Source of the DNA: Styela clava
Taxonomy: Eukaryota
Assembly (NCBI RefSeq): GCF_964204865.1
Contig: NC_135256.1
Location: 15,004,001 to 15,068,000, forward strand
DNA: 64,000 nucleotides
Direction of reading: 5' to 3'
Each line of letters begins with the position of its first letter. Position 1 is the first letter of the stretch. This document shows, in pieces, positions 127 to 18,000 of this stretch. The notes beneath the pieces are model-generated. The model searched no databases. It was not told the origin of the DNA and saw only the letters and a list, made by a program, of their open reading frames with translations. A program made the position numbers and the translations under genes.

Positions 127-419
127 CAATGGATGCAAGAGCCATGCTTCAAAAATGGTTAGGGAATAACATGCGGATCAAGATGTCAGATGGCCGGACA
201 TTGATTGGAGAATTCTTATGTACAGATCAACAAAGGAATATAATACTTGGTTCGGCTCAGGAATACTTGCAATATACTGAGAATGATTGTTTGGAAGAAC
301 CCAGAATGCTTGGCCTGGCCATGGTTCCTGGTAGACATATTGAGAGTTTACAAATTGATATGCAACCAAATTCAGTGATTTTGCATGGCACTGAAGAACA
401 AGATGTTGGCCCTTTCTAA
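127..419 (+). CDS. NAA38: N-alpha-acetyltransferase 38, NatC auxiliary subunit (LSm domain, LSMD1); last exon. An upstream exon ends at 10 (GTAAG donor at 11).
   Basis: Translation MRIKMSDGRTLIGEFLCTDQQRNIILGSAQEYL...EPRMLGLAMVPGRHI matches the NAA38/Mak31 Sm-like signature. ATG at 129. Splicing 10 to 127 (AG at 125-126) keeps the frame (ADQA-MDAR), so the true start may lie left of the window. Confidence 0.92.
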
Positions 420-1052: not shown

Positions 1053-3074
1053 ATGATATGTTTGCAATCTAATCGCCTTACTTCAAGCTTGAAGTTTAAA
1101 AACATATGTGGAATCTTTTATAATATTTACCCAATAAGTGCAATGGCTCAGAACAAACTTCACACAAATAATAAGGATGGCGCATTGCAAGACCTTAAAT
1201 TTGATAATCTTGCTCTACGAGAACTTCCAGTTGACACAAGCAGAGTCCCTGGCTCTCGTCAAGTGAGTGGTGCTTGCTTTTCACTTGTCACTCCAACACC
1301 TGTCAAGTCTCCCAAAGTGGTGGGAGTCTCCAAATCTGCATTATCTCTTCTAGACTTGAGTGATAACGCAATAGAGTCAAAAGATTTTGCCGAATACTTC
1401 AGCGGAAATAAAATTATGAGTGGGAGCGAGCCAGCTTCACATTGCTATTGTGGGCATCAATTTGGGTATTTTTCTGGTCAATTAGGCGATGGGGCTGCAA
1501 TGTACCTTGGCGAAGTTGTCAATAAGAGCAAACAGAGATGGGAACTTCAGCTAAAAGGATCAGGATTAACTCCATATTCACGTACAGCTGATGGAAGGAA
1601 AGTGTTAAGATCATCCATAAGAGAATTTTTGTGCAGTGAAGCAATACATAATCTTGGTATACCCACAACAAGAGCAGGTAGTTGCATTACATCAGATTCA
1701 AGGGTGATTCGAGACATATTCTATGATGGAAATCCTAAAAATGAACAATGTACTGTGATATCACGTATCGCAGAAACTTTCATTAGATTTGGATCATTTG
1801 AAATTTTTAAACCAACAGACGAAGAGACTGGTCGAGCAGGACCTAGCGTTGGTCAGACTGATCTTTTACACAAAATGCTCAAATATGTTTCCAGTACATT
1901 CTTTCCTGACATAGTAGAAAGATTCCCTGACGAAGAAACAAAACTTGTTGAAATGTATCGTGAAATTTGTCATAAAACTGCCAAACTTGTAGCCAAGTGG
2001 CAATGTGTTGGATTTTGTCATGGCGTGTTGAACACAGATAATATGAGCATAGTTGGTCTAACTATAGATTATGGACCGTTTGGGTTTATGGAACGATACG
2101 ACCCAAATTATGTTTGCAATGGATCTGATGATGGTGGAAGGTACTCGTACAAAAACCAACCTGATATATGTGAATGGAATTTGAAAAAGTTGGCCGAAGC
2201 GATCAAGGAAGCGGTTCCATTAGCAAAAACTACACCAGTACACGACGATTATAGAAAGGTATACGATGCAGAGTATATATCAATCATGAGGCAAAAATTA
2301 GGGCTTCACAAGGAGGGAGAACAAGATCTAAAGTTGATTGAAGATCTGCTGAAAACTATGGAAGAAACCAGCGCCGATTTTACAAATACGTTTCGATCAC
2401 TATCTTCTATGTCTCTTCCAGGAATGGAAAATTTTAGTAAATCCAGAGGGGAGACGATAAAATTAGTCTCGTTAACATGCTTCAACCTTCAAGAGCTGAA
2501 AACAATTTATAAACCACGAATGAATCCGCAGCAACTTCAATCCATATTAGCGCTTGTTCGTGAAAATCCTGCTTTCTTACAAATCATGACAGGCGGAAGA
2601 ATGGGAATGATTATGACTGAAATGAATAATCTGGAAAAAATGGAGAAATTAGATGACATGACAGAAGATAGTTTGAAAAAGGAAAACGTTGAAAAATGGA
2701 CAAAATGGTTCGATAAATATGAAAAACGGTTAGCCGATGAAGCATCCGTTTCTAATAACCTTGTAGAACTGAATGAGAATCGTATTAGTATGATGAATAA
2801 AACGAATCCTGCATTTATTTTGAGAAATTGCGTTGCACAGAATGCTATTGAGGAAGCTGAGAATGGTAATTATGGAGAAGTACATAAACTGCTGAATCTA
2901 TTGGAACATCCATTTGATGAAATTCATGTCACCAAACCTTCAACTCAAGAAATAGCTGAAACGAGCGCAAGTTGCCAACAAGGAGTGAGCGATGACGATA
3001 ATCAAACTATGCAATATTCTTTAAATAAGACGCCTATGTGGGCATTACAACTTAAGGTCACCTGATCCTCTTAG
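1053..3074 (+). CDS. SELENOO: Selenoprotein O (protein adenylyltransferase, pseudokinase fold); intronless, 673 aa, Sec encoded by UGA 3063-3065
   Basis: SelO motifs YCGHQFGYFSGQLGDGAA, ELQLKGSGLTPYSRTADGRKVLRSSIREFLCSEA, HGVLNTDNMS, IDYGPFGF, NPAFILRN. 3' end reads GTC ACC TGA TCC TCT TAG = V-T-U-S-S-stop, the conserved SelO C-terminus. SECIS downstream. The first ~30 aa are basic/hydroxylated with no acidic residues, as expected of a mitochondrial presequence. Confidence 0.96.
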
Positions 3075-3283
3075 AAACTTTCTTCATATTAGTGTTTGGT
3101 GAATAATAGTAATATTGACATGCTTGTACAAAACTTGCCAAATAATGGGAGTCTGCATTTGCTTCGGCCATTCATTCAATGTGCATGAATTTGTTAATTG
3201 GCATCATTATCTTTTATAAATGTCAACTATTATCTGATTTCACCATTCACATGATATTATTTTGTTGCAGTACTGGTAATTTC

Positions 3284-3289
3284 AATAAA
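3284..3289 (+). promoter_or_regulatory. Candidate proximal poly(A) signal AATAAA in the SELENOO 3'UTR, upstream of the SECIS; distal ATTAAA at 3429-3434
   Basis: Canonical hexamer followed by U/GU-rich sequence. Whether it is used cannot be seen from DNA. Confidence 0.45.
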
Positions 3290-3302
3290 GTTGAAAAACT
3301 TA

Positions 3303-3366
3303 TTGGATTTTTCATGATGGTAAATTCATAAACCCGGATATGCTGGGATGTTTTTGCTTGAACCCA
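3303..3366 (+). promoter_or_regulatory. SECIS element (form II) of SELENOO
   Basis: AUGAU core at 3314-3318. 11-bp helix II GGUAAAUUCAU/AUGUUUUUGCU with two U.U mismatches. Unpaired AAA at 3330-3332. Apical mini-stem CCCGG-AUAUG-CUGGG. 3' UGAA at 3359-3362. Lies ~250 nt after the in-frame UGA. Confidence 0.9.
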
Positions 3367-3919
3367 CTGGTACTGCAGCATGCTATTGTGAATAAGTAAT
3401 TCTCTGTTAGATGCAATATATTTGTTGAATTAAACTATACATCTCATTCGTTGAGCTTACTTTCACATCAAAAAGCACCAGAAACTCCATATTTTTGCTT
3501 AGATACACAATGCTGTTGGCCTATCACCCATAGTTTGCCGTATTCATATAGGTTTGTTTGTTGTTGGGAAGCCTCGTACACCAGTATGCTCTTCTTTGGT
3601 GCTTCCAATCAGGTCTTTGTATTTAATGGGGCTCTACCTGAATAAGTTTGGGTGCTTTAACTCTGACTGACTACATGCAGCAGCTAGCTGAAAATCTATA
3701 CAACAAGCTATGGCATATATTGTCCAACTGACCAGTTTAATTGAAATCACCTGCCTACTAGTTCTATATGTAGTCATTGATAACAATTAGAGCCTTTTCA
3801 TTCGAAGCATTCATACATTATTAGAACTGCTTTAAAGACTTTTATTCAAAATGGAACATTCATGGGCAGAACATTATGATTGAGGAGATAAAAGACATGA
3901 TCATTTCAAATGATAATTC

Positions 3920-6900
3920 CTAAATTTTTTCTTGTTCGTCTGGCTCATCTAATTTCATTTTCTTTGGAGCAGGATCTTTGTCATCATTGCTTTGATTTGC
4001 ATCAGATTCTACATCTTTTTCCTCACTTTGAGCTGGTTCTTGATCACCATCCTGTGAGGATGGTAATAAACACTTGTTATTAGGTAGAGTACAAGATTAG
4101 GATTTTGTGGCACAAACAAGCCAAAAATTCCTGACCACTGCATTACACTGTAAATATGCTGTTTTGTTAGAGCATCTGTGATATTATGGCAACAGTAAAG
4201 TTAACAATTTAACAATATAAATCAGGCGAGCAATTACGACACTGTTCATGATTGGTTTATACTGCAAGGTGAGAGGTCACATATCTTGGGAGTTGAGTCA
4301 ACCAATTCAGCACATACACCACTGGGGCAACTGCTTTTATTTTCCCTAAGCACAACAAGATCTGAGCTTAGATCTTCAGTATGGAAGCCAGAATATTTGA
4401 TTATCACAAATGCAATTTCAAAAGTACAACGTTAAAAACAGAGTATTGTAATATGCATCCATACAATCACTTGGCATCTACTTCTACATACATGAATGAT
4501 TACCTTTGATTTGTTATCTGTGCTTTCCACAGCTTGCTGTTTTTCATCTCCAGCCTGTTGTGCTGAATTCGCCTTTAGATTTAAAAATAAATATATTTAG
4601 TGACAAAAGGGTAAAACAACCTCGGAGTAACTTCCACACAATGTAATTTTTAAATCCTATGGGTAAATAATACTTTAACTGTCGAGAACTACAATGATGC
4701 CTCTAGTACTTTCTGCTGTTTAGACTAGTTTTTATTAAGGGGAAAAATTCACATTCTGTCTATTAAACAGAACAGTTTATAAGAAAATGATTTGGTGTGC
4801 TAAATGTATGTGTTTTAGGATACAAATATCCAGAGGAACCTAACAAACACAGAATAACACAATTGCCCGATTATCTTCTAAGGATAGGATTAGGGTATCT
4901 TTTCCTCTTACTTCATCCTGCTCCATATCTTTTGTTTCTGACACAGGAGGCTCTACTTCAAAGGCAATTGGTACTTCTTCAAATTTCTTTTCTTTATCAT
5001 CCTCTGTGGTAGGCTCAGGTGGTTCAGCCAGTGATTGGAATGCAACCTAAAGCATAGATGTAATATTAAATCACTTGAATAGATATAGCCATTTGGCTTA
5101 ACATCATGATGAAAATTTTGCTTACTTTTTGTTTATTCATTTCTTTCACAATTGTCAAATACATATCATAAACATATTGATGCATCTGTGCCATATCCTT
5201 GATAACAAACTTAGGTGCAGCTGTATTGCGCAGAGTTTTTGGAGGGTAGGTTTCTCCTGTTAGTAATTCTAGTTGCATAGGTCTCATCAGTAATTGCTTG
5301 AAAGCAGGTGATAACTCAAAGCAATTTCTGAAGAGTGGAACTCTTGCAAAGATGTACAAACCCAACCTAGCTCTCGACATAGCAACAATCAATCTTCGTA
5401 CATCCCTTATGTGTCCAACTGTCTTGGTCCTGACAAGAGAGAGAAGAATGTAGTTGTTTTGTTGACCTTGGAATCTATCAACAGTGGTGATTTTATCTGG
5501 CCATCCGATGAGAGGGTTGTCACCACATCTTTGCCTGACGACATCCCTGATTAAATGCTTTTGACCATTGTACGTTGTCAAGATTGTAATTTCAGAGCTT
5601 GGATATCCAAGAAGTCGCATGTACATGAAGACACCTACACAGTATTCAGCCTCAGCTAAATTTTGATAGAAATAAGGATTGGGTTCTGATTCTCCCACTC
5701 CATTATAATCTTCAACATTTATAACTTGAAAATCAAACACGAAACCAGGATTGAACATCTTAAATTCAGGTTGTGCGAGAACATGTGGCAAATCTCTCAA
5801 TACCTTGTACCTCCAACTATAGAGACTGCGAATAGACGGCCTTGCTCTGCCTTGAGCATCGAGATCTACAGTGGGAACTCCCAACCGAACAAGCCTTGCA
5901 AATAGGGACTGCTCCATGTTACATAAACGTTGAAATGCCATGTTTTTTATCACAGGTGGTAACTGATGGTGATCTCCAATCATTATCCAACGTTTTAACC
6001 TGTTGTATCCATCTGAAGGATTTTGCAGTAACAGAGGTATAAACGTTTCAATTTCCAAGATCTGAGCAGACTCTTCCATGAGTATGTTATCATACTTGAA
6101 ATCCATTTTGGTTAAATCTTGCCTCTTTAGTGCTGCATGAGTACATGTCATAGCGATAATCTTTGCACTTTTGACAAGCAGGTAATGAGAACGATCAAGG
6201 CCAGAACGTAAAAGTTCAAACGCACGGTATTCTTGCAGTTTTTCAAAGATATTTTTAATATGCCTGAAACATCCTTGCGCAATGTCCCAATCGTGCTCAA
6301 AATCCTTTTTGGGAAAAAGAGGTTGTGGTGCATCTGCGAAGAATGAGTGAAAGGGAAATTTGTCAGACACTGTTTCAGAAGTGTTTTCATTTTTAACTTC
6401 ATGCTGGTATTGCTCCCATCTTGAAAGCACTTGATACTTGAAAAAATGTGATGCAGTTTCACAAGTGTATGAGACGTCACCAGGAACACCTAAGCTCTCT
6501 TGCAATCTACCAACATCTTTCAGAAGTGCCAATCTTTGAGTCAAAACATAGTTAACTCTCCCGTATCTTGAAAAATCTTTTTCAGTATCGAGTTCCTCTT
6601 CACCATGACCTAAACGTAGAAGGTGTCTTTCGTCAATATCTAAATGAATAAGTTTCTCAAAAAGCTGGTTCAATGCCTGGTTAGAATGAGTAACAATCAG
6701 TGTCCTCTGTTCTGGAAAGTTATGATACAAATTAGAGATGATTTGCACAGCAACGTCAGTTTTTCCAGTACCAGGAGGTCCTACAACCATGGTAAGACCA
6801 GGCTGCATTCCCGATCTGATTGCTTCAGTTTGTGTTGGAGTAAATCTGATTGTATTCTTCTGGGGAGCATTAAATGGATAAGGTCCACGATTTGGTATCA

Positions 6901-9673
6901 CGTGTGCAGTGACTGAAATTTTCTTGTCTTCAGGAAAAGACAATTTGAATGGTGGAATCGGAGTATCTGAATCCTCAGAAAGTGACACATCATAACCAGG
7001 AAATGCTTCTTTAAGATGATCCAAAGACAAGAAAGTGTCATTCCAGTCAAGATTATCAATGATGCGTCCTAACTTTTTGTAGTTCGCTGCACCAGGATCT
7101 CCATATCCTAGCAGTACATCATGTAGCCAGGTTGGTACAACACATTGTACATTCATTAGATTTCTTATTGTAGCAAGCACTGCTTTAAAGTTGTTTTCTT
7201 TTGGTTTGCGCCGCATAATGACATTGAATGTCTCATATGGATCTTGTTCACCATCTTTCAGAACTGCTTCCATATCATCTTGGTATTGATTGGTGTCTAA
7301 CCAGATTCTATAGGTACGAGTATTTCCATCAAGTTGAGGCTTTGGCTCTGGACCTTCTTCTATCACATGACCTTCACTATCAAGCATTCCTTCAATCTCA
7401 CAACCTCGTACAACTACATGGTATTTTGATAGAAATGGTACACTGCGGTCTCTTCTCACTGTTTCATCCACTTCAAGTGCTGTAACAGACAGAAGCACAC
7501 AAACATCATGCTTTCGTAGATTTTCCCATTCCGCTCTCAGTTGCCTTGATGATGACAAAGCAATTGTGACATCAGCACGAACTTGAGAAGGGCAAGACTC
7601 TGCTATATCTGGTTTGGCAACTTCCACAACGTTGAATGCCTGGATGGGTAGTGCCATTCTTGACCATCCACCAAAAGATGAAGATCCGTCATTTGTAGGA
7701 TAAGGTTGAAGACGTTTCACCGCATCTTCAATATCGCTTTTAATTTCGTACGCTGATTCAAGGCGAAAAAGGTTGAAGTTACGCAATAGGTAGTCATGAA
7801 GAGTCAAAAACTGAAGATTTAGTTTTGGAAGTGCCAATGTCCTATCATGAAAGAAGTTTTCTGTTTTTGTAAGATTCTCATCCCAAAGAACTTTTTCAGT
7901 CGGGTAAAGCGGAAGTCTGTTGATTGCTTCAAGTTGCGATGGTCGTCGTTCATACTTATTTATTAGCATTTCAAGTATAATTCGTTTGTCATCTTCTTCA
8001 CTGACCCTCATTACAATTTGATCACATAATTTTTTCATTTCTTCCAAACTTAAAGCTCCAAAATGTTTGTTGAGCGCTTCACGCTTGTCATTGTGTACTA
8101 CAGTTCCAAGAGCAAATTCCTTTAAGTTTGGAAACTTTGAAAATGCACACCTCTGCAACTTCTGCATTCGGTCATAATGTGCTGTAAGCATTTCCTAAAA
8201 TAAAAAAGTTATTACAAACACAACTCAACAGATGGATATCATTTCTAAGATGAAACATGAACAACAAACAGGAACTTTGAATTTGTCATGTTCAAAAATA
8301 ATTTATAATACGTGCTTTAATAAAGTTTAAAACATTGGTTCTTAATAAATTTTCATAATGTGTGCCCCTCTCCCAAAGACTCTTGACCATTGCACACCCT
8401 GCTCTTCTATAAAATTACCTAGTTCGACTGTTAGAATGTTTCGCTCGGTTATTTTATGCACTATGTTAAACAATAAAAAAGACAGCAAACAAAAGCAAAA
8501 AAAATAAATACATTACAGTCAAAGAGTTAAATGAGTCGCAGTCAATTTACTTGGAATTTATATAGTCAGTCTGAATGGTACTTGGTGAAGGCCTTTGCTC
8601 GTGGCTGCCTAGGAGGGCAGCAGGCCCAGTATGAAAAATCGTGGTTTGAAGGGGTATTTTGCGAAGATTTGACACATTCTCAAACATTTAATTCGATGAT
8701 TTCCATTCCAAATTTCTAGTAGGCATATTTTACATACCTGTTCTGTGAGTGCCTCCCCTGTAAGATCATTGACTTCAAAAACTGCATAAGCTGCAAGATT
8801 TTCAACAAGCTGTGAGAAAACATCATCGTTTTTGTAGAGTTGAGATTGGCGACAACGAACTACAAATTGAGCATCATCTAGTAAAGTATTGAAATTTCTT
8901 CGAGTTACGAGGCAAGAATCTAGATCAATCATCAACTGCAAAAATCTTTGACAATGATCAATAGCTTCATCATTCATATTTGTAGAAAAAAGAAGAGTGA
9001 GAAAATGATCCATCAGTTTTCGGAGAAAGCTTCTATCGAACTCAGATTTTTCATTTTCGTCATCCGAAGCTTTAGCATCTTTTTTAGCAATAGATTTCCA
9101 AAGTTTTTTGAGCTTAGTACTTTTCTTCAGTTCACTTTCCAATCTTTCTGGTAGTAAGCATTTCCAACATCCAAGTGTAAGAGTACGAAGGGTTCGTAAT
9201 CTTACAACATCAACTTCAATACTGTTATAGCAGTGATTCAAAAAAACAATGCACACGGTACGTTGGATAATTGGATGTTCTGAATTCAAAACTATTTTCA
9301 TAACTTCCGTGAAGAAATGCCCAAAATGTTCTGGCTTATCAATGAATACTTCCCATGCAGGAACACTTTCCCGTCTTTTTTCATTAACCATGCATACAAT
9401 TGACATTACAAATGCATGTGTCGATGTTTCAGGTGTAAAATTTGGCCATAAATAATTTTCTAAATACCGACTGAACTCCAGCATCATGAGCCTTCGAGGA
9501 ATGAATTCCTTGCCAACAATTTCAGTCGAAAATACTTTTTCGATTATACTTGATTGAAACTTCTCACTTTTTTCTAATGCTTCATTTGACCAATGCTTTG
9601 ATGCCAATTTTGTTAAAGGATCAAAAAGCATCTGCTCCGTAGTTGGAGCCAATCTGGCACTTTGCTTCGGCAT
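3920..9673 (-). CDS. AQR: RNA helicase Aquarius (intron-binding spliceosomal SF1 helicase), ~1446 aa; exons 9673-8738, 8194-5126, 5046-4912, 4572-4504, 4051-3920
   Basis: [41 protein letters not shown], Walker [51 protein letters not shown] phase-0 junctions join in frame. Minus-strand AATAAA at 3841-3846. Confidence 0.96.
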
Positions 9674-15000: not shown

Positions 15001-18000
15001 CAATTATAGATAACTATGCTTGGGTATAATAATCATACAATAGCACAAACTGAAGTCAGAACTCAGTCCGTAGCTGTGCCTAATGGTTCTAGGAAAATTC
15101 ACCACAGGAAATTTCGCCGAATGAAAAATCGCCTTATTTAAAAAAGATTCATTATATAAGAGCATACCCTAACCCTATAAACCTAACTGTTTTAATCACA
15201 AGTACGGTATTTGTTTTACAGCAAAATGCTCTTGCGATTTTTCCTATGCAGCAAAATTTTTTGCAGCGAGATTTCCCTCTGGCGAATTTTTCGGACATGG
15301 TGCCTAACATCTCACAGGGATTATCAAAAATTGACTACTCCTTGTCATTAGTAAACTTTGAGAATATCATGCTACGACTTATACCATATAAACTATTTTC
15401 TGTTTTCAATTTTACATGATGTTACTTACTTCTTAGATGTTTCATTTATGATTGAAGAACGAAATGATTCCATGTGATCTCCATTTACTAAAATACAACA
15501 ATATTACTGTTTCAACATTTGGTAAATGAATTCTGAATATACAAAGGTATGTCATTGGCGTGAATGGCACAATTTCAGCTTAAACCGCTGGAATAACATA
15601 ATGAAAAACAAATTCACTCAAATAACTAGTTGCAAAAGGCCGATAAGATTTGTTTGTACACTAGGAGATGGACATTTCGATTAATTAAAATTGTTCAATA
15701 ATGAATTGTGTCAAATACTCTATTACAATAAATAAACTGGCAAAATTTTAATGAAATATTTATCTACTTATATGTTTCACGTATAAAATCTATTACATTT
15801 TTTAAATAGATAATTGAATCTAAACACAAAAACAATGACTATAATCATATGACAATACTATTTGAAATCTGTTTATACTGTTCAAGCGATTCTATAATCA
15901 TTTACAAGTTTTTTTTTCAAAGAGATAGAAATTACCTTTGCTTTTGATCATACTGTGACATCATTAGGAATATACCAACCTGTAGCACTTGGAATGAATT
16001 CTGACATGTTCTGCTGATGAGACTGGTTAATTGGCATAGGTGCCTGATATGCAGAAAACGAGGTAGGCAGACGAGATGATACAAATGGATAACTGGAGGT
16101 ATTACTCAGAATTGAATTGGTGGCTTTACTATGACTATCCTTAGTCTGTTCCAGCAGGTTTCCTAATTTTCTGCTGGTGCCTGTCTGCCTTAAGGTGTCT
16201 TGCATTGTGCTATTTAAATTCTGTGAAAAAGTTATCAGTTAAGATTGTAGAACAGATCATCTTGATGTAAATACAAGTAAGCAAATTTAATATACATACT
16301 GAAATGTCATGCAATGTGCTCCCAGGTAAATATGTTGAACTTCTCATATCTTGAAGCATATTTGAAAGAGTACCAGATCGTATTGGTCGCATCGGTGTAT
16401 TACCAGTTGTGTTTCCGACTACCTGCAATATTATAAAAGTATAAATGACTAACATGACAAAATTGATTTTATGTGTCATCAATAATAAGGTGATATTGGT
16501 CATTGTCATTCACCTGGCTAGAGTAGCAATGTTTATTCGTAAAAATTGGACTCTTTCTTCAGAGCCGTGTTTCCCAACCTAATGAAAATTTTCTTAAAAC
16601 ATTTGTATTTTGGAAAAAATCTGAAAGTTACTGATTTTATTTTGTAGTAAATTTTGTTGTTCATTTTATATTTGGTATTGAAATTTTGCTCAATAGTAAT
16701 TGTATATGTGGGAAGTATCACAGCGCAAGAACTTGACAGCATATATTTTGCTTATTGAAGCGATGTCATGATTTCAATAACCAGCTGATGGCAGACCATC
16801 TCACTAATGCAAGTTTAAAAGTTTTGTTGAAATAAATGTTATGTAAAAATGATTGTTTTGTATTTGTAATTTAATTCTTCAGCCATGAGCGCACTTCATG
16901 TGGTTTAGTACCGCATGCGAGCATATCGTTGGGCCGTGAGATTTTACAAAATTTATTTTCTTAAATGTCGCTTGAAAAAAGATTAGGAACCACTGCTCCA
17001 AACAATTAATAGTATCTGTTTTTGCATTGATGACAATATAATTTCAGGCAAGTAATAAATTATGAAAGCAATTTCAAACTGACAGGTTCATCATTGACTT
17101 TTTGTCTAATCTAGAGCTTCGTTCATAGTGAAGATATAAAAATATTTCATAACAAATACCTCCAATGTCTCGTTGTAATGAGCTTGAAGTAGATTTTGCA
17201 TTTTGTTGATCATTTGACGTCTGAGGTTTTCTGTTTTTTCCTTCAATCTTGACAAAAACAGCAAATGAAAAGTAAATCAACAGAGCTTAGATGCCTGTGG
17301 TCTAATGCAAATTTCATATGTCAACAAGGCATGTTTTAAATAAATTTATATATGATTAATTATACAATACATTCGTAAACATGGATATTTTATAAAAATC
17401 ATTGGCTTCTGAAATGGTCTAATTGCGAATTGTGATCATGGTCAAATTATATCTTCATAATGCTTCAGCACAATTTATCTTTCGTTACATGGAATCCAAA
17501 CAATTTATGAATATGGAAGATTCTAGCCATACTTCACAAAATGAAATAGTAGCATAGTAATTTCTTGTTCCTAAGTGACAATTATCCATTAGAAAAAAAT
17601 TCTAATTTGCAGAACATACATCTCATCAAATTTTCTTTCTTTATCTTCTAAATCCTGTTTCCATCTATGTTCTAGTTGTTCAATCCTATCTTCATACAAG
17701 CTACATTGACTTTCCAGCTCCATTTGATGACTCTTTGTTATATCCATCACCTGTATCATTTAATTAAAATACAATTTGATCTCACAGTCAAAAATCCACA
17801 AAAGATTGCCTGTCACAGAATTACTTGAGTTGGTCAAATTGACTTCAAAAGCAATTTTGAGTTTAACTATACTTACTGAACCAATGATTCAGGGGTACTT
17901 CACACAGAATAATACGTATAACATAATAAATTTTTCCCCTCTATTCGCCACTGATATATTTGGTATGAACTACAACCTGTATTTCAACAACAGTGGAGGT

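Follow-up and report, generated by a model that had tools for sequence, protein, structure and literature searches.

A poly(A) signal, predicted to be masked, ahead of the SECIS element in the SELENOO gene of Styela clava

Animal SELENOO (SelO) proteins, as described in PMC3994087 and PMC3316567, carry the SelO pseudokinase domain (PF02696), an activation-loop Cys and an xVT-U-S-S end, and their mRNAs have a form II SECIS in the 3' UTR; the SelO of Styela clava shares each of these features. In the mouse, the SECIS is given as type 2, and the mammalian protein is reported to be little affected by selenium deficiency (PMC3994087). Cys272 and Cys476 of E. coli SelO form a regulatory disulfide, and Cys476 is replaced by Sec in higher eukaryotes, according to a review (PMC7278666). 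Among tunicates, Ciona SelO has been listed (PMC2874816).

Near-full-length proteins that lack the C-terminal Sec have been described in mammals. In SELENOS variant 1, splicing removes the SECIS and a Sec-less protein results (PMC3628699), and the intron-retention isoforms of mammalian SelO are reported to be mostly without Sec (PMC3316567). The SELENOS source also lists the SelO SECIS as weak and already discusses whether Sec inclusion is regulated in C-terminal selenoproteins, among them SelO (PMC3628699). An isoform of the same kind has been proposed for Styela SelO; however, the mammalian isoforms arise from splicing, whereas the Styela proposal concerns the choice of poly(A) site. A closer parallel in this respect is human SELENOP, in which alternative polyadenylation between SECIS 1 and SECIS 2 is reported to remove SECIS 2 in 10-25% of the mRNA, with a long/short ratio that selenium left unchanged in HepG2 cells (PMC5133445). 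Both genes have a poly(A) site or signal upstream of a SECIS, use of which removes that SECIS. The SELENOP proximal site is documented and leaves SECIS 1 in place, whereas proximal use in Styela SelO is only hypothetical and would cost the mRNA its sole SECIS.

A different kind of precedent is provided by HIV-1, where the polyA hairpin masks AAUAAA from CPSF (PMC2645353). The fold predicted for Styela SelO likewise places the AAUAAA in a stem, where CPSF would have restricted access to it. The masking was shown by experiment for HIV-1, whereas for Styela it is predicted, and the Styela hairpin, unlike that of HIV-1, belongs to a cellular mRNA, within a domain that also holds the SECIS. Our literature search, which left most subscription papers outside its reach, returned no description of a SelO gene in which a poly(A) signal precedes the SECIS.

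The SELENOO gene and its SECIS

The window, a 64-kb (64,000-nt) stretch of the Styela clava genome, contains the SelO CDS at 1053..3074 on the + strand, on which all features given below also lie. It is a single ORF of 673 aa when UGA is read as Sec, ending LKVT-U-S-S-stop. The frame runs from 1053 to 3065 without interruption, up to and including the Sec codon (TGA, 3063..3065), which is assigned from the sequence and from the ends of homologues, and continues with TCC TCT TAG. The SelO identity and the Sec position, both given in a preliminary description of this DNA, are borne out by these codons and by a PF02696 match of 407 bits (E 1e-121). The protein is 98% identical to a 670-aa full-length entry named Styela clava SelO and matches the SelO structures 6EAC, 6III and 6K20. 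Beyond this entry, the nearest proteins among those listed show 61-67% identity. Sec is the third-last residue, and the homologues among the matches listed end at the corresponding place: the end is V-T, V-S or L-S in 114 of the 120, as expected if their annotation stops at the SelO UGA. LRVT is the commonest end among the homologues listed.

The Cys of the activation-loop motif YVCNGSD (codon 2115..2117) had been regarded as the counterpart of the regulatory Cys of bacterial SelO, and the alignment with 6K20 and 6III agrees, placing it at the position of E. coli Cys272. Where mammalian SelO has the Cys of CxxU, the Styela protein has Lys, as is usual in invertebrates, and the apical loop of its SECIS carries AA instead of the CC of mammalian SelO. 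The Styela gene further differs from animal SelO in its intronless CDS and in the prediction of a long basal stem into which the AAUAAA hairpin is inserted. The 3' UTR is single copy in the Styela genome, which also contains a Cys-SelO paralogue that has introns and ends LKVSCSS. An escape of SECIS-less mRNA from NMD had been argued from the lack of introns. The uninterrupted ORF agrees with the premise, but the argument adds little, since a UGA three codons before the stop normally sits in the last exon.

The SECIS lies at 3314..3362, with AUGA at 3314-17, helix 2 at 3319-29/3348-58, AAA at 3330-32, an apical mini-stem at 3333-47 and GA at 3360-61. The quartet comprises 3315-18/3359-62, helix 2 includes two U-U pairs, and the mini-stem has five pairs. 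The AUGA…GA quartet, the helix 2 of 11-12 nt, the unpaired AA and the apical mini-stem are those of a form II element. Four other AUGA/GUGA sites considered as the core (3099, 3185, 3251 and 3388) fitted the pattern less well and were dropped, as was a 3' GA placed at 3347. An Rfam search (RF00031) of the 64-kb window gave no SECIS match at the gathering score, nor at E<=10. Six other Styela Rfam SECIS matches also all fell under the gathering score (129 of 8270 candidates were scored). Therefore, the model is insensitive here, and we do not count the miss against the SelO element. When a covariance model was trained on 14 other Styela SECIS candidates, the SelO element being left out, 3306-3369 came out as the top match of the whole 64-kb window (score 26.4 bits; E about 0.009, a rough value), in agreement with the SECIS originally placed with its AUGA at 3314.

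Poly(A) signals, predicted fold and transcript ends

A canonical AATAAA at 3284..3289 does stand just before the SECIS, as the preliminary description had it, with a gap of 24 nt to the AUGA at 3314, and the ATTAAA noted downstream is located at 3429..3434, +115 nt from the AUGA. The U/GU-rich flanks of the SECIS were likewise found, at 3301-3312 and 3349-3359. From composition only, the chance of an AATAAA within 240 nt is 0.23, that of an AATAAA or ATTAAA 0.42, and that of an AATAAA in a given 35-nt window 0.03; the proximal hexamer is not improbable from composition. In animals, the spacing from AAUAAA to the poly(A) site is given as about 15 bases, with AAUAAA the top motif in Ciona (PMC4360255). 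At this spacing, distal cleavage is expected at about 3449-3450 and proximal cleavage at about 3304-3305, where it would remove the whole SECIS, as had been supposed. The hexamer thus stands before the SECIS at a distance workable for SECIS-removing polyadenylation. The raw sequence even favours the proximal site, which has the better hexamer and a U fraction of 0.35 in the downstream 40 nt, compared with 0.25 at the distal site.

The predicted fold points the other way. The AAUAAA lies within a predicted GAAA-tetraloop hairpin at 3281..3307 (-6.7 kcal/mol, z -2.79, 3/200 shuffles), paired with 3300-3304. Bases A3284-U3286 are predicted to pair with 3302-3304 at >90%, and the predicted probability that all six bases of the hexamer are unpaired is 0.1-0.4%. 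The expected proximal cleavage site would fall in the 3' arm of the same hairpin, and SECIS helix 2 takes up the U/GU-rich downstream stretch as its 3' strand. The preliminary description overlooked that the hexamer, like the U/GU element supposed to act downstream of it, is predicted to be base-paired. A local helix 1 under the quartet is missing from the predicted fold; in its place, a long-range stem of 15 bp, with its 5' arm at 3263..3277, its 3' arm at 3366..3380 and three G-U pairs, is predicted to enclose the hexamer hairpin and the SECIS. For the resulting 122-nt domain, the predicted energy is -41 kcal/mol (z -5.76 to -5.9), beaten by 0 of 200 shuffles. Among 17 Styela SECIS neighbourhoods, it has the most stable predicted fold (z +0.7 to -3.4 for the 16 others), in a comparison that favours SelO because the borders were chosen on it.

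Opening the proximal hexamer is predicted to take 3.4-4.1 kcal/mol and opening the distal one 0.8-1.9, and the proximal hexamer is among the 2-5% most buried of the 195 AATAAA in the 64-kb window. Such energies are sensitive to context, since one signal of a neighbouring gene also reaches 4.4 kcal/mol in one of three contexts. The prediction therefore has the AAUAAA paired in a stable stem, as expected of a masked signal; against this reading, the hairpin is modest at -6.7 kcal/mol and the fold is a prediction only.

Nine RNA-type runs cover the region, all as assembled contigs, and four of them (from three studies) were compared over 2700-4200. A junction skipping 4052-4503 in the neighbouring gene is present in all four, and three have no cover between the two genes, which identifies the runs as RNA. 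One unbroken contig crosses 3281-3380, and with it the hexamer, the SECIS and the stem, in each of the four runs. The contigs stop within 3423..3449, at 3423, 3435, 3440 and 3446, the last followed by 3 unaligned letters. These stops lie beside the ATTAAA, which is likely the working signal, and suggest a poly(A) site at about 3446-3450; a CA dinucleotide (3445-46) lies beside the longest stop. A SECIS-bearing SelO mRNA with a distal end exists. No joint or loose contig end was found at 3300-3320 in the four runs, contigs being an assembly product that drops rare branches and hides minor ends. The idea that the proximal site is used or regulated finds no support in these data: SECIS-containing transcripts with a distal end are present in all four runs, no proximal end is listed, and the hexamer is predicted to be masked.

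We propose that this is probably an ordinary SELENOO mRNA, whose transcripts cross the SECIS and end after the ATTAAA, the upstream AAUAAA being kept mostly silent by the predicted hairpin. The hairpin at 3281-3307 could form as soon as the polymerase is about 20 nt past the hexamer, and is predicted to pair both the AAUAAA and the expected cleavage site. SECIS helix 2 would then pair the U/GU-rich downstream element, and the 15-bp stem (3263-77/3366-80) would close the domain, taking over the role of a local helix 1. CPSF would pass the buried hexamer and use the exposed ATTAAA, with cleavage near 3446-3450. The choice between Sec and no Sec would be set at the ribosome, by recoding or termination at the UGA, as in other C-terminal-Sec proteins, and not by the choice of 3' end. 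If the masking is true, this is an ordinary selenoprotein gene in which hairpin and long stem would keep an upstream AAUAAA from costing the mRNA its SECIS, and it offers a modest, testable example of a recoding element guarded by RNA structure. The predicted masked poly(A) signal would then be the sole unusual detail of this SelO gene.

Other selenoprotein genes and distant SelO 3' UTRs

For comparison, we took a further 21 Styela selenoprotein genes in which both the stop and a SECIS candidate could be located. The set includes recent duplicates; Sec codons were checked in part of the genes, and the 3' ends derive from sequence alone. MsrB1 and SelS (stop not located) and a GPx-like locus, L109 (no SECIS found), were left out of the count. 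In MsrB1, an AATAAA stands at -25 relative to a SECIS recognised by pattern only and missed by the covariance model.

An AATAAA or ATTAAA precedes the SECIS in the UTR of 3 of the 21 genes and overlies the stop codon in four more. All seven belong to internal-Sec families (GPx, SelW-like, deiodinase), in which loss of the SECIS would destroy the protein because the Sec is internal; in one deiodinase, the AATAAA lies 20 nt before the AUGA. Neither of the two C-terminal-Sec genes in the comparison, TXNRD and SelK, has a hexamer in the UTR upstream of the SECIS; the last coding exon of TXNRD contains an ATTAAA. The arrangement of an AATAAA before a SECIS is not tied to C-terminal Sec in the Styela genome.

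Hexamers between stop and SECIS are depleted in the 21 genes, with 8 seen against 18.6 expected (P 0.005), or 2 against 14 when one deiodinase is set aside. The SelO hexamer is therefore not plain background and must be either neutralised or used; surviving in a depleted zone, it is probably neutralised. Masking is not the general rule in Styela selenoprotein genes, since the other hexamers that precede a SECIS are not especially buried, with predicted opening costs of 0.1-3.3 kcal/mol. In 20 of the 21 genes, the first hexamer downstream of the SECIS is found between +107 and +624 (median 180), and 6 of these 20 are ATTAAA; the SelO ATTAAA at +115 fits both the offset and the use of this variant.

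A metagenome scan (best 80 of 534 matches) returned only distant SelO, with 14 loci that have a Sec-type end. An AATAAA or ATTAAA occurs in 1 of these 14 distant 3' UTRs, and in 0 of the 3 with a model-supported SECIS; being distant, and possibly using other poly(A) signals, these UTRs weigh little. In one metagenome locus (L008), an AATAAA lies 11 nt before a SECIS-like 5' half without the 3' GA, which the covariance model missed.

Alternative readings

The main rival to the masked signal, which we regard as unlikely but well worth keeping in view, is that a proportion of transcripts, from a minority up to a sizeable share, constitutively use the proximal AAUAAA, which would yield a SECIS-less mRNA and a …LKVT-stop protein with no selenium control. 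It draws on the canonical hexamer with its U/GU-rich downstream region, on the survival of that hexamer in a zone purged in other Styela genes, on a cost of only three residues, and on the precedents of the short SELENOP mRNA, SELENOS variant 1 and intron retention in mammalian SelO. The depth of the last contig (3216-3435/3440) also speaks for it and against the masked signal: in two runs, it is 0.28 and 0.22 of the body, where a single-end taper model predicts 0.38-0.79, and these values are closer to 30-60% proximal ends. However, contig depth is not a valid measure for ranking parts of one gene, the depth model is ambiguous, and the low values could stem from allele splitting or library bias. 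A simple read model of the two low-depth runs, with assumed read and fragment lengths, makes the observed contig stops unlikely at 80-90% proximal ends and compatible with 0-60%. Constitutive use is further opposed by the predicted pairing of the hexamer and the cleavage region and, weakly, by the unbroken contigs at 3300-3320 in all four runs, from which such branches would be dropped.

Far less probable, in our view, is a regulated switch, in which selenium or redox state alters SECIS folding or nuclear SBP2 binding and so leads to proximal cleavage and a Sec-less AMPylase free of the Sec-Cys lock. The hexamer, the cleavage site and the downstream element share one predicted domain with the SECIS, and alternative folding could couple them. 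SBP2 is reported to shuttle through the nucleus, and peroxide moved it there in HEK293, although not in McArdle, cells (PMC4615290); the Cys272-Cys476 regulation of E. coli SelO (PMC7278666) also counts in favour of the switch. Nevertheless, the RNA contigs of the four runs contain no proximal end, the masking hairpin would form locally, with no need for SBP2, and the one tested precedent, SELENOP, has a selenium-insensitive ratio in the source cited (PMC5133445), as mammalian SelO itself is said to respond barely to selenium deficiency (PMC3994087). The arrangement is also absent from TXNRD and SelK, such hexamers are rare among the distant Sec-type SelO UTRs (weak evidence, as noted above), and a Cys-SelO paralogue is present in the genome. 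Finally, the switch would be partly redundant, as termination at the UGA on the full-length SelO mRNA yields the same …LKVT protein. For this reason, mass spectrometry of …LKVT versus …LKVTUSS, which had been put forward as a check, cannot discriminate between the readings.

The boldest form of the switch, a SelO SECIS held in a three-way junction with its own poly(A) signal, where folding or nuclear SBP2 (selenium or redox) picks the Sec or the Sec-less AMPylase, strikes us as scarcely more credible. A regulated switch, if real, would connect SECIS fold and 3'-end choice for the first time in the literature searched, and a redox-unlocked AMPylase would be possible whatever the Sec-tRNA supply; the present data do not support it. 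A C-degron on the truncated …VT end was also considered and left aside: on C-terminal Ala/Val degrons the source (PMC7458402) offered no more than a general remark, and SelO is mitochondrial in mammals.

It is very improbable that the hexamer is a chance AT-rich word ignored for non-structural reasons, the long stem merely supplying SECIS helix 1 or being a folding coincidence, for although such a word is not improbable within 240 nt and 7 of the 21 other genes have a hexamer, not strongly masked, that lies in the UTR or overlaps the stop, the SelO hexamer is predicted to be among the most buried of the window and free hexamers are depleted before the SECIS elsewhere.

A variant hexamer, TATAAA (3215..3220), is without sign of use, and its first base is polymorphic in two of the four runs. 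In favour of the masked signal, sequence variants across these runs number 0 in 3259-3413 and 7 in 3075-3258, at a nominal P of 0.013, six of the seven forming one linked haplotype.

Deiodinase 3' untranslated regions

Among the Styela loci outside the window, the deiodinase gene L104 (G000:C1, about 22.449 Mb) is a stronger candidate than SelO for premature cleavage or gene decay. Six AATAAA/ATTAAA hexamers lie between its stop codon and its SECIS, the last of them 20 nt 5' of the AUGA, and none is strongly buried in the predicted folding. The distance from stop codon to SECIS in this gene is 865 nt.

Two further deiodinase loci, L105 and L106 (G000:C1, about 22.43–22.44 Mb), carry tandem repeats of 192–229 nt in their 3'UTRs, with a SECIS-like unit in each repeat; the array in L105 spans positions 1951–2787 of that locus. 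The Styela SECIS model, built without SelO, gives four hits in L105 and two to three in L106, at 12–16 bits. AATAAA sits between the later repeat copies. These would be multi-SECIS UTRs serving a single-Sec protein.

Hexamers at other selenoprotein genes

In three tandem SelW-like genes (L092–L094; G000:C8, 16.43–16.44 Mb) and one GPx gene (L086), AATAAA spans the stop codon, 300–540 nt upstream of the SECIS. The MsrB1 gene at L129/L132 (G000:C19, about 10.68 Mb) has no introns and contains an in-frame UGA. Its sole SECIS candidate begins with GUGA, has one AATAAA 25 nt upstream and a second within it, and is not matched by the Styela SECIS model. The GPx paralogues L087, L088, L090, L091 and L115 share a short GTGCATTCG-like motif located 15–25 nt 3' of the SECIS, flanked in some cases by an inverted repeat.

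Surroundings of SelO and a second SelO gene

Convergent with SelO, on the minus strand, lies Aquarius (AQR; window 3423–4053 and 4052–8191), whose ORF is nearly intronless, with one spliced intron at 4052–4503 in the RNA contigs. The RNA contigs from the AQR side end at about 3835–3897 in three runs but extend to 3423 in a fourth, X9, and the X9 contigs would overlap the SelO 3' end. About 630 nt 5' of SelO, on the same strand, is an LSM-domain ORF of 96 aa (window 129–419), an arrangement that may reflect an operon or trans-splicing. The 5' end of this ORF recurs in part, and in rearranged form, roughly another 700 nt upstream (about 5400–5490 of L135).

A second SelO gene, L002 (G000:C6, about 24.07 Mb), contains introns and has Cys in place of Sec (LKVSCSS); its identity is 47% in its largest exon.

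The second-best match to the SECIS model in the window, at 16574–16632 (22.8 bits, E 0.05), falls within very AT-rich DNA and is probably due to chance.
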